Below, in pieces: positions 25,021 to 27,311 of a DNA stretch of 64,000 nt (its first letter is position 1; each line of letters starts with the position of its first letter). Origin of the DNA: a virus. The position numbers and the translations under genes are program-made. The DNA lies in the IMG/VR virus record IMGVR_UViG_3300042691_028844, positions 1 through 64,000 of that record, one strand, 5' to 3'. Under the pieces are notes generated by a model, which was given only the letters and a program-made list of their open reading frames with translations, was not told the origin of the DNA and made no database searches.

Positions 25021-25290
25021 TCAAACAGACTGACGAAGATGAGAGAAACCGGGCACTTCATGAGCCCAGTCGGGTGAGGGCAACGTGCGCCGCAATTCGT
25101 TATACAAACCCGGCTTAATGTTTATACGTTCCGCATCGTATGCGGCACTGCGCCAGATACCTGGCACTGCATCGCTACCCATGTAGCCTTCATCCCATGC
25201 GGCTATACGTTGCCCTTCATTAACAAGAACATACAGCCGCCGTGGGTTACCATTACGGTCGTTATGTGTGCAAAGATGTTGGAAGTACAT
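25021..25290 (-). CDS. Early protein with DRNGNPRR motif
   Basis: ORF track; start at MYFQHL. Confidence 0.7.
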   Translation of the reverse strand: MYFQHLCTHNDRNGNPRRLYVLVNEGQRIAAWDEGYMGSDAVPGIWRSAAYDAERINIKPGLYNELRRTLPSPDWAHEVPGFSHLRQSV

Positions 25291-26072
25291 GGCAAAAGAT
25301 GCGACGAATTTAGTAAAACAATCAGCGAGAAAGTTTGGCCGATTGTTTACGCGAAAGGTTCGCAGCCTTGCGAGCAATTGCTTCGATTTGCTTAGCAGTC
25401 ATGACGGATCACCTGTTAAAACAATGTGGACGTTGAGAGAGTGAATCTCTCAGGTAAAGTGTAAGTTACACCCTACGGGAGAGAATCACGCTGACAAGAT
25501 AAACGCTAAGATTGATTCAGTGCCATGATCTAATTTAGATCATAACTTGATCCACGATTGGTCTACCTTGTCAGCGGACTAGAAACAATCCGGGATCCCT
25601 CAAAGGATCATCCGGTAATCAAACGGAAAACATAATCGACGCACAGTGTTAGTTACAGCGTACGAATGCAATCGCTGGCAGATAACTAATCCCGCCATCC
25701 TACGGGCGCCGCCGTGGTGAGGGATCAGTGTCCAACGGTCCGCGTACCTGCTCTAAAGACAGATACGCTGGACACAATCAGTACAATGTAACTAACACTG
25801 TGCGCTGATAATGTGTACGGTGCGACCCATACATTGCGCAGCTAGTTACAGGGAACGACCCTGCAGATCAGTTGTAGTTACAACGTGCCCACTGATAATG
25901 CGTGACATAGATACAGAGCGTGAGTAGATAGGGTTCGCCTATCGGACAGTGTGACCCACGGTTATACCTTGCGGGGGAACTTCCGCGCCCGCTTCATCAC
26001 TTAAGTATGAAATAGTTAGCTATTGTGTCGGCTACCCGTGCTAACCCGCACACACATAACTAAACTATTTAA

Positions 26073-26084
26073 TTGTCAAGGTTC
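26073..26084 (-). promoter_or_regulatory. boxA-like element GAACCTTGACAA
   Basis: Matches cyanobacterial rrn boxA. Confidence 0.6.
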
Positions 26085-26220
26085 GTCAACCTAGTTACCT
26101 ACTACAACTCCCGCCGCTCACGTTCGGTTACACCATGCCTGCCATCGCCTACGTTTCGGGGAAGAGCTCCCTACCATCGGCGGCACGCGTGGCGACCGTT
26201 CGGCCATCGCGGGGTTGATT

Positions 26221-26257
26221 CAGTTTTCAAGGTTCAACCGATCGGGTTTCGATCAGT
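26221..26257 (-). promoter_or_regulatory. boxB-like hairpin followed by boxA GAACCTTGAAAACTG
   Basis: 8-bp stem 26237-26257 directly upstream of the cyanobacterial boxA consensus. Confidence 0.7.
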
Positions 26258-26263
26258 GAGCAC

Positions 26264-26293
26264 AGCATCGCCCCGATCTGGTCCGTCCGTCAA
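26264..26293 (-). promoter_or_regulatory. Putative early promoter TTGACG-N18-GATGCT
   Basis: Predicted TSS falls on the first base of the boxB-like stem; -10 is imperfect. Confidence 0.45.
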
Positions 26294-26387
26294 CCCTTTC
26301 CACTAGGTACAAATACCTATTCTTCTATAAGCGTAGCTAATGGTACAGGTGTCCTAGTCTGCCAGGGTCCTTCTCCAGTAGGAGGAA

Positions 26388-26467
26388 ACGCACGCACGCA
26401 CACACACACACGCACACGCACACACGCACACACGCACACACGCACACACACACGCGAGCGCGCGCGT
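26388..26467. repeat. Alternating purine-pyrimidine (CA/CG) tract, about 80 bp
   Basis: Read directly; single interruption at 26457. Confidence 0.9.
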
Positions 26468-26792
26468 TAAATAAAACTACCTACCCCCTCAGTATTGTAT
26501 AACAATAGAGTTGTTGTAGCCTACTCCTTGTGTGTTAGTTATACTCAGTGCTAAGTATAAAGAATAGCGAACGCTAAGTGTATAGCTTATGCTTACTGTC
26601 CGTGTTGGTCGCAAGGTCCTTTTTTTTATATAGCGCGCTTACTCGTCGGCGTGGGCGAGAAGGGTCTGGTAATTTTCTGGGTAAATTGGGGGGCGTAGTT
26701 TTGAGTGACAGCATATTGACAGATGCTTCACAAAAATTTTTTCGCCGCGTGGTTTTTGCTTTAGACTTATTCCACGCCGCGCAGAGTACGGA

Positions 26793-27014
26793 ATGTACTA
26801 CAGAGATCAGGTTGTAACAGGGCCAGAATTACTGGAAGAGTACATTGCGCAGGTTACTCCTCGTATTGTTCGTAATATCTACTCTGGGTACAGTGGTGAA
26901 CCGCATATTATTACGCCTGGGGACAAATTAAATATGTTGATGGATTACCGTGATGTTATAGATCACGACGCGAATACTTTGCGTCAGGTTTTAGGCCCTA
27001 TTCAAGCTCCTTGA
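26793..27014 (+). CDS. Small hypothetical protein
   Basis: ORF track; TAGACT upstream. Confidence 0.65.
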   Translation: MYYRDQVVTGPELLEEYIAQVTPRIVRNIYSGYSGEPHIITPGDKLNMLMDYRDVIDHDANTLRQVLGPIQAP

Positions 27015-27018
27015 TACC

Positions 27019-27225
27019 ATGTCTATCTTCAAAGAAGAGGATGCTGCCTTAGGTAAGATCCCTTTTAGCGCAATGGTTCGGAAATACGGGCCTGAGTTAG
27101 CTCTTGCGGGTTACTTCGAGGAGCTTACAGACGCCCCTGACGAGCCTCCGTCACCGATTGCGACAGCTTTCTTACGCAAGTACCTGTCTGAGCTACCGTC
27201 GGAGGACGCTCCTTCTTTCGGGTAA
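27019..27225 (+). CDS. Small acidic protein (FLxxYL motif)
   Basis: ORF track. Confidence 0.65.
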   Translation: MSIFKEEDAALGKIPFSAMVRKYGPELALAGYFEELTDAPDEPPSPIATAFLRKYLSELPSEDAPSFG

Positions 27226-27237
27226 AGCGTTTTCCGG

Positions 27238-27311
<74 letters not shown>

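Follow-up and report, generated by a model that had tools for sequence, protein, structure and literature searches.

A promoter-hairpin-boxA leader resembling those of host ribosomal RNA operons at the head of the replication arm of an S-EIV1-related phage

We analyzed the first 64,000 nucleotides (nt; hereafter the window) of the IMG/VR virus record IMGVR_UViG_3300042691_028844, a single contig of 86,580 nt with 49% G+C and a CheckV completeness of 100%, focusing on an element at positions 26073–26293 of the minus strand that resembles the leader of a ribosomal RNA (rRNA) operon (rrn). The genes of the window fall into two arms. On the minus strand, genes run from approximately 25,290 down to the window start and encode a MoxR-type ATPase, a VWA protein, a family A DNA polymerase, and a D5-type primase-helicase; on the plus strand, genes run from 26,793 on and include those for terminase and portal. 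The divergent region between the arms spans approximately 1.5 kb without credible open reading frames (ORFs), and the element lies there, on the strand of the replication arm. It consists of the following parts.

26288–26293, minus strand: −35 hexamer TTGACG of the putative leader promoter
26264–26269, minus strand: −10-like hexamer GATGCT, 18 nt after the −35
26237–26257, minus strand: boxB-like hairpin of 8 base pairs (bp), ACTGATCG / loop AAACC / CGATCGGT, with one G-T pair, ending 1 nt before boxA1
26224–26235, minus strand: boxA1, GAACCTTGAAAA, then CTGAATC (26223–26217)
26085–26223, minus strand: conserved folded spacer RNA between the two boxAs, approximately 140 nt, supported by a sequence profile and compensatory changes
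26073–26084, minus strand: boxA2, GAACCTTGACAA, then TTAAATAG (26072–26065)

The original prediction for this stretch had described TTGACG-N18-GATGCT, an 8-bp hairpin and a boxA at 26235–26221 (read here as GAACCTTGAAAACTG) on the minus strand, with a second boxA some 140 nt downstream. Each was found where it had been placed, the second copy at 26084–26073, and the claim that this leader heads the early arm agrees with its position in the ORF-free divergent region ahead of the replication genes. The transcript is predicted to start at A26257, at or near the 5′ end of the hairpin, and the starts of boxA1 and boxA2 are 151 nt apart. No ORF covers the boxA site. Even when one mismatch is tolerated, the pattern GAACCTTGA(A/C)AA matches at just these two minus-strand sites, both in the window and across the full 86,580-nt record. 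Two exact 12-mers are expected approximately 0.02 times per genome by hand calculation. With one mismatch allowed, 12 of 100 shuffles gave two or more matches; copy number alone is therefore weak evidence, and it is the comparative evidence that places the boxA pair beyond chance.

The boxA copies match host rRNA operons closely. The boxB-boxA-D4 nomenclature of the 16S–23S spacer reportedly goes back to Iteman et al. in 2000. A passage of PMC8461337 gives GAACCTTGAAAA as boxA and the CTGCATA following it as D4, both conserved domains of the cyanobacterial 16S–23S spacer. In four of four complete genomes of the cyanobacterial phylum, the spacer boxA is identical to GAACCTTGAAAA, lies between tRNA-Ala and 23S, 95–112 nt before the latter, and continues as CTGAATAG or CTACATAA; the spacer form of the rrn boxA reads GAACCTTGAAAACTGAATAG. 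The leaders of the same four operons consist of TTGACA, 17 nt, TAGATT or TATGTT (TAnnnT), a hairpin, and GAACCTAGA(C/A)AA, with a boxA of GAACCTAGACAA in three genomes and GAACCTAGAAAACTGAATAG in one. A wider search for the boxA core followed after 90–120 nt by the 16S 5′ end matched 15 of 121 phylum genomes, while the reversed-pattern control matched none, and the promoter-hairpin-boxA order was present in all eight rrn leaders inspected from these 15 genomes. Leader variants in cyanobacterial rrn operons read GAACCTAGACAA or GAACCTTGACAAC(T/A)GAATAG. Three phylum members with small genomes carry the leader form G[AGC]ACCTTGACAAC(T/A)GAATAG, which equals boxA2 plus its tail in several relatives of the phage; the boxA2 12-mer plus C(T/A)GAATAG is the rrn leader boxA of these three bacteria. 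The claim that the motif is a cyanobacterial rrn boxA was thus borne out on four rrn operons and on the 15 genomes with leader matches.

Exact matches to the phage 19-mer were found in the genome collection in 36 stretches, in several settings outside rRNA operons. At ten cyanobacterial loci, it stands directly before long transfer RNA (tRNA) arrays with dozens of tRNAs within a few kb, several of them behind TTGACA-N17-TAnnAT and a hairpin. It also follows two hairpins in Scytonema hofmanni, Nostoc, and a metagenome-assembled genome (loci L134, L135, L147, and L159), with no rRNA or tRNA among the Rfam matches listed for L134, L135, and L147. In three cyanobacterial genomes (L338, L340, and L342), GAACCTTGACAA lies 15 nt before the start codon of rpsJ, the gene for S10 (NusE), and after a terminator; NCBIfam confirmed the rpsJ identity for L338. 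This placement looks like autoregulation of a Nus factor, and it fits the mention in PMC5725501 of a boxA before rpsJ in some genera.

Relatives of the phage were fetched with the product of the first conserved gene of the arm.

25021–25290, minus strand: first conserved arm gene, 89 amino acids, no Pfam or PHROG family, used as the handle for fetching relatives

This protein has 60 metagenome homologues, mostly of 88–95 amino acids, the 118-amino-acid ORF at this place being over-long at its 5′ end, and no tblastn match in 50,697 isolate phage records. Residues D33, E34, G38, V42, P43, R47, A50, Y51, and Y63 are invariant in the family. An alignment search with the protein yielded 59 viral and 80 metagenome loci (139 in all, of which 124, totaling 796 kb, are distinct), which we set with the gene on the plus strand. 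Many of the relatives' contigs begin within 1 kb upstream of the gene. The boxA 12-mer with at most one change has 73 matches in the 139 loci, and 68 of these are on the gene strand and upstream of the gene, often as pairs 150–165 nt apart. With the relaxed motif G[ACG]ACCTNGA[AC]AA, the 124 distinct loci gave 80 matches on the gene strand and one on the other, against a chance expectation of approximately 1.1 per strand (hand calculation). A profile built from the inter-boxA segment alone found 35 places in the distinct loci, every one on the gene strand and every one flanked by boxA on both sides, where random windows usually differ from the motif at four to six positions; nine of the loci, which lay outside the training of the profile, carry both boxAs as well. 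Within these 35 modules, boxA2 is exact in 25, has one change in nine, and two changes in one. boxA1 has 0–3 changes, concentrated at positions 2 and 7, and reads G[AC]ACCT[AGTC]GA[AC]AA; positions 2 and 7 are also those that vary in host rrn leaders.

The promoter and hairpin are retained along with the boxAs. TTGAC occurs at the aligned place in 24 of 28 modules, and of the same 28 aligned modules, at least 90% retain the A of the −10 (26268) and all retain its final T (26264). A hairpin of at least 6 bp ends 1–2 nt before boxA1 in 30 of 31 distinct modules (two nt in one case), compared with 692 of 2,000 random places. Across ten ungapped sequences, four of the eight pairs of the stem show compensatory changes and 92.5% of cells pair, a result that none of 500 shuffles reached and that slid registers did not come close to. 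The hairpin therefore keeps its shape and not its sequence, and this covariation, at a fixed 1-nt distance from boxA1, marks it as a signal at the RNA level. No hairpin precedes boxA2. RNAalifold returned no consensus structure on a 28-sequence MAFFT alignment because that alignment is too heterogeneous; the structure counts come instead from a subgroup alignment and the ten-sequence ungapped alignment, a 15-sequence alignment having been left out with five sequences out of register. No similarity of leader DNA was found in the two first relatives. Conservation in relatives, on which the original prediction had staked itself beforehand, is thus seen at the level of the module, which is kept, strand-specific, and covarying in its hairpin.

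Natural variation points to the same parts. We read it from contigs of four DNA sequencing runs, parts of the stretch being without cover in runs X11 and X13. A variant contig from run X8 bears 17 changes between 26222 and 26297, none of which touches either promoter hexamer; the hairpin stem is kept through a C-G to U-A exchange, and two changes in boxA1 convert it to the host leader form GAACCTAGACAA. A divergent contig of 640 nt aligns only at 26066–26185.

Downstream of boxA1, the transcript is predicted to be highly structured. The spacer of approximately 140 nt contains helices with compensatory changes and extensions of variable length, and a sequence-conserved GGCC-GAAC-GGCC hairpin lies approximately 12 nt after boxA1, its loop kept in the main subgroup of relatives. 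The module as a whole (26060–26260) folds with z = −2.4. Two further sets of features follow it in the arm.

25400–26072, minus strand: ORF-free, strongly folded RNA of 673 nt reaching from boxA2 to the first conserved gene, with very long perfect stems
14188–14165, 11169–11141, and 8612–8590, minus strand: three strong intergenic hairpins of terminator-like form, each with a T run, on the coding strand, the first of them just before the DNA polymerase gene

The stretch 25400–26072 has no minus-strand ORF of more than 32 amino acids, and its minimum free energy of −270 kcal/mol compares with −198 ± 8.5 in 20 shuffles (z = −8.5). Rfam revealed no rRNA similarity in the gene-free stretch and nothing above gathering threshold; allowing E values up to 10 added just chance-level eukaryotic matches on a GT-rich repeat. 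Blastn of 25400–27300 against the 50,697 phage records gave a tRNA-Arg as its only match. As DNA, most of the 0.7-kb folded RNA is poorly kept (in 2–13 of 124 loci), with an island at approximately 25650–25800 in 13 loci, and the distance from boxA2 to the gene ranges from 0.6 to 2.5 kb among relatives. The terminator pattern matched 29 sites, compared with 21 ± 4.6 in shuffles, and just the three strong intergenic ones are named above; they may be boundaries of temporal classes.

Further sequence features surround the leader. An imperfect (GTGTGTGC)n simple repeat occupies 26381–26469, approximately 90 nt upstream of the −35, and public assemblies break there (reads are cut at 26381–26469). 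In many relatives, a conserved TGTGTGCCAAT lies approximately 40 nt upstream of their own −35. At 26600–26750, on the side of the plus-strand arm, the DNA is conserved in another small island (in up to 12 of 124 loci), which is possibly the promoter region of that arm.

The host is likely a cyanobacterium, probably a freshwater picocyanobacterium, as judged from gene similarities; its genus is uncertain at this distance. TerL shares 51% identity over 100% of its length with that of Synechococcus phage S-EIV1, and the portal shares 45% over 78% with that of S-EIV1, its sole match in the 50,697 phage records. The two phages also have the two-arm layout in common. DNA of the phage was found in 20 sequencing runs from 14 studies, labeled as freshwater, lake, 'fungus', and 'crustacean' metagenomes. 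Within the minus-strand arm, an ORF on the plus strand (7964–8269) resembles the phycobilisome degradation protein NblA over positions 5–48 of 50, with 21–22 bits against a cut-off of 25; if real, it would be a host-takeover gene of cyanophage type and a marker of the host. The psbA and hli families were searched for in the phage and are absent.

The factors that act on boxA in other bacteria are encoded by the likely hosts. NusB scored above cut-off in all 61 genomes sampled from the GTDB phylum. Rho did so in 15 of the 61, in no small genome, and a Synechococcus elongatus control was negative; the assertion that cyanobacteria generally lack Rho therefore holds for 46 of the sampled genomes and fails for 15. 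According to passages in PMC3177189 and PMC13753749, boxA-bound NusB-S10 nucleates a complex with NusG, NusA, and other factors that resists termination and aids rRNA folding in E. coli and B. subtilis, and PMC13753749 describes binding of B. subtilis NusB to its rrn boxA. No antiterminator PHROG of the N or Q type was detected at E ≤ 0.001 among 20 early-arm proteins, with the limits that N proteins are small and diverse and that most arm proteins match nothing. A phage RNA polymerase was likewise not recognized among approximately 47 proteins scanned.

Comparative sequence analysis shows the element to be genuine and under selection: a promoter-hairpin-boxA leader of the host type, with a second boxA, that a large group of uncultured freshwater relatives of S-EIV1 has in common. 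We propose, with a probability of roughly 0.65, that 26073–26293 comprises the promoter and 5′ leader of the early (replication) arm and is a functional copy of host rRNA-operon control signals. The core of the original prediction, an rrn-style leader with a second boxA at the head of the arm, stands in this form on its architecture, its relatives, and the host rrn match. We strongly infer that the leader uses host Nus factors. In the mechanism we envisage, host RNA polymerase would start at the leader early in infection, guided by the sigma-70-type hexamers, and the nascent boxA RNAs would be bound by NusB-S10 (NusE) of the host. Joined by NusG and NusA, this pair would bring the polymerase into the pause- and terminator-resistant, RNA-chaperoning form used for rRNA. 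The modified polymerase could then run through the long untranslated folded leader and the intrinsic-terminator-like hairpins of the approximately 25-kb arm. A folded leader of 0.67 kb (z = −8.5) and three strong terminator-like sites suggest a need for such a polymerase. Since the likely hosts lack Rho, the gain would not be protection from Rho; the more likely benefits are speed, a polymerase less prone to pause or terminate at hairpins, and RNA folding in good order.

Several observations weigh against this reading. The −10 GATGCT agrees with TATAAT at just three of six positions, and a simple consensus promoter scan called no minus-strand promoter here. RNA runs containing the phage, which would speak to the start site and to minus-strand transcription, were looked for among public sequencing runs and none was found. 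boxA1 is loosely kept, with 21 of 35 modules differing at positions 2 and 7, and the X8 variant has two changes within it; given that this variation stays within the range of host leaders, the 12-mer is a looser signal than it looks. The comparison itself carries ascertainment, the first alignments having been seeded by the motif and the inner-segment profile trained on motif-bearing loci. The divergent region of S-EIV1 has no boxA match at one mismatch or fewer. Upstream DNA of 4.5 kb or more was available for 56 relatives; one or more copies were found in 27 of them, and in the other 29 the DNA within reach contained none. With S-EIV1 and about half of the relatives lacking it, the module is dispensable for the lineage. 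At contig ends of Roseburia, Lachnospiraceae, and other Bacillota, the 19-mer likewise follows promoter-hairpin leaders; the motif is therefore a genuine boxA yet not exclusive to cyanobacteria, and the host clade itself is drawn from the S-EIV1-like TerL and portal, the NblA-like ORF, and the freshwater runs. Finally, no experiment on NusB, S10, and boxA from a cyanobacterium was found in the literature searched.

The best-surviving alternative is that the boxAs serve the RNA itself. In this scenario, which we regard as rather unlikely, the locus would be a phage gene for a stable non-coding RNA (the 140-nt RNA, the 0.7-kb RNA, or both), the Nus-modified polymerase would act as a folding chaperone, and expression of the downstream genes would be secondary or driven from other promoters. 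It draws on the exceptional folding of the RNA after boxA2, on the retention of the inter-boxA spacer with compensatory changes, on the same signal heading tRNA arrays and rRNA in hosts and tRNA arrays in two viral contigs, and on the way a leader-type and a spacer-type boxA flank the RNA as they do host 16S rRNA. However, no strong terminator separates the folded RNA from the genes, one weak 5-bp site at 25706–25691 being the sole candidate, and neither the poor conservation of most of the 0.7-kb part nor the variable distance between boxA2 and the gene suits a dedicated RNA gene. A stable-RNA function and an arm leader are mutually compatible. A bolder form, which we consider unlikely, views the locus as a miniature rrn operon in which leader-type and spacer-type boxAs bracket the approximately 140-nt RNA and precede the ornate 0.7-kb RNA, the phage making stable trans-acting RNAs through the host rRNA complex in Rho-less hosts.

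Alternatively, the leader could be a nut-like site at which a phage factor resembling N binds either the hairpin before boxA1 or the GGCC-GAAC-GGCC hairpin and joins Nus factors on boxA. A pairing of boxA and hairpin is typical of lambda-type sites, the loop sequence of the hairpin after boxA1 is retained within the main subgroup, and the arm encodes many small proteins without assigned function, including the conserved 89-amino-acid protein. The hairpin before boxA1, however, is free to change in both its loop and its stem, a trait of rrn boxB that a protein-recognition loop would not show, and hairpin-then-boxA is the order of rrn leaders. Moreover, the 20 early-arm proteins scanned contain no known antiterminator family, and a factor encoded downstream could not act in the first round of transcription. 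We accordingly hold this possibility to be improbable.

An abundant two-boxA leader RNA might instead soak up NusB-S10 as a decoy and depress host rRNA synthesis. Two boxAs per transcript behind a conserved promoter would suit such a role, as would a regulated supply of Nus factors, which the host boxA before rpsJ suggests (PMC5725501). No feature of the sequence favors titration over use in cis, and the fixed architecture, with a hairpin 1 nt before boxA1 in the host order, suits a cis-acting loading site, which leaves the decoy very improbable. Least probable of all is a DNA-level element (a replication origin, repeats recognized by a DNA-binding protein, or the −35 box or operator of another promoter) or a fragment of host rrn that was captured and has no function: the motif does contain TTGACA/TTGAAA, TTGACG (26089–26084) with TAGTTT after 16 nt could represent a second promoter whose spacer contains boxA2, and a simple GT-rich repeat lies nearby in the divergent control region, but the 80-to-1 strand bias, the compensatory RNA hairpin abutting boxA1, and the lack of similarity to rRNA itself argue otherwise. 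We set aside the second promoter because TTGAC precedes boxA2 in just four of 19 main-subgroup sequences and boxA2 is present in all, and excluded a neutral captured fragment because the element is kept in relatives whose flanks no longer align.

Several known systems resemble the proposed arm leader built from host signals. Cyanobacterial rrn operons share with the phage the 12-mer and its variants, the succession of promoter, hairpin of variable sequence, boxA 1–3 nt later, and (C/T)(T/A)GAATAG-like tail, and the order of a leader-type copy followed by a spacer-type copy. Unlike in the rrn operons, no rRNA or tRNA follows in the phage; the boxAs flank a phage RNA of approximately 140 nt in place of 16S rRNA, protein genes come after 0.7 kb, and the hairpin is missing in front of boxA2.

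The reliance of phages on host Nus factors is textbook knowledge only for lambda-like phages with an N protein. The lambda nutL and nutR sites (boxA and boxB with N and NusA, NusB, NusE, and NusG) resemble the present leader in placing boxA and hairpin signals in early leader RNA. Here, however, the hairpin precedes boxA1, its loop is not conserved, no N-like family was found among the 20 early-arm proteins scanned, and the boxA has the host rrn form, whereas that of lambda is a phage-specific deviant. The lambda order of boxA and then a boxB with a recognized loop is thus not found, yet a sequence-conserved hairpin does follow boxA1 in the main subgroup. A phage boxA leader is not new in principle, as T7 provides a precedent. 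A passage of PMC3709561, citing Savalia et al. 2010, states that mutations in the boxA behind T7 early promoters have a phenotype. T7 is, like the present phage, a virulent non-lambdoid phage with host boxA just after its early promoters, and in T7 no N protein is involved. That arrangement, a host boxA downstream of an early promoter, is found here, and the sigma-70-type hexamers suggest use of the host polymerase. In contrast, the host of T7 has Rho, T7 switches to its own RNA polymerase where none is recognized here among approximately 47 proteins scanned, and the present leader is long and folded, with two boxAs and a covarying hairpin. In cells, boxA sites apart from those of rRNA include suhB, rpsJ, and toxin genes according to PMC5725501, and CRISPR arrays are mentioned in PMC13753749. 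As proposed for the phage, Nus factors are recruited there to transcripts other than rRNA through a short boxA in the 5′ leader, but these are host genes, and some are repressed by boxA instead of antiterminated.

The signal also recurs in other viruses. A 15-mer scan of IMG/VR returned at least 117 viral stretches, a count near chance for a collection of this size, such that only the contexts are informative. Of the 117 matches listed, 66 lie where no 100-codon frame is open, compared with 15% of random places in the same loci. Among the matches listed, the sites form 63 context clusters, of which 26 are mostly non-coding, many of them with promoter-hairpin-boxA; such non-coding contexts recur in unrelated viral groups, in clusters of 12, 8, 8, 5, 4, and 4 members, and no 16S start lies within 3.5 kb of a listed site. 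Two of the listed sites head phage tRNA arrays (11 tRNAs in 3.5 kb). Among isolates, the Bacillus phages Slash (KF669661, locus L346 2440–2530) and Staley have GAACCTTGAAAACTGAAT after a promoter-like site, intergenic and behind an annotated terminator; in Slash, GAACCTTGAAAACTGAATAAC comes approximately 25 nt after TATAAT and precedes a block of small genes, making this a candidate boxA leader. Our search of the open-access literature found no report of boxA or antitermination in a cyanophage.

If the leader works as it looks, widespread uncultured freshwater cyanophages would recruit the host rRNA antitermination complex with host signals alone. Small, well delimited, and equipped with natural variants, the leader may offer a handle on what boxA and Nus factors do without Rho, be it speed, read-through of hairpin terminators, or RNA folding, and it could be used in cyanobacteria as a compact element for producing transcripts that are long or highly structured. 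Were the miniature-operon view correct, the ancestral job of boxA and Nus factors would be co-transcriptional RNA folding and speed, not defense against Rho, and the non-coding promoter-hairpin-boxA sites in unrelated viral contigs and in Slash would represent a general, unrecognized phage strategy. The same signal stands before tRNA arrays and rpsJ in cyanobacteria, before an operon of a Bacillus phage, and in many viral contigs, which suggests that boxA acts in regulation outside rRNA far more often than annotation indicates.

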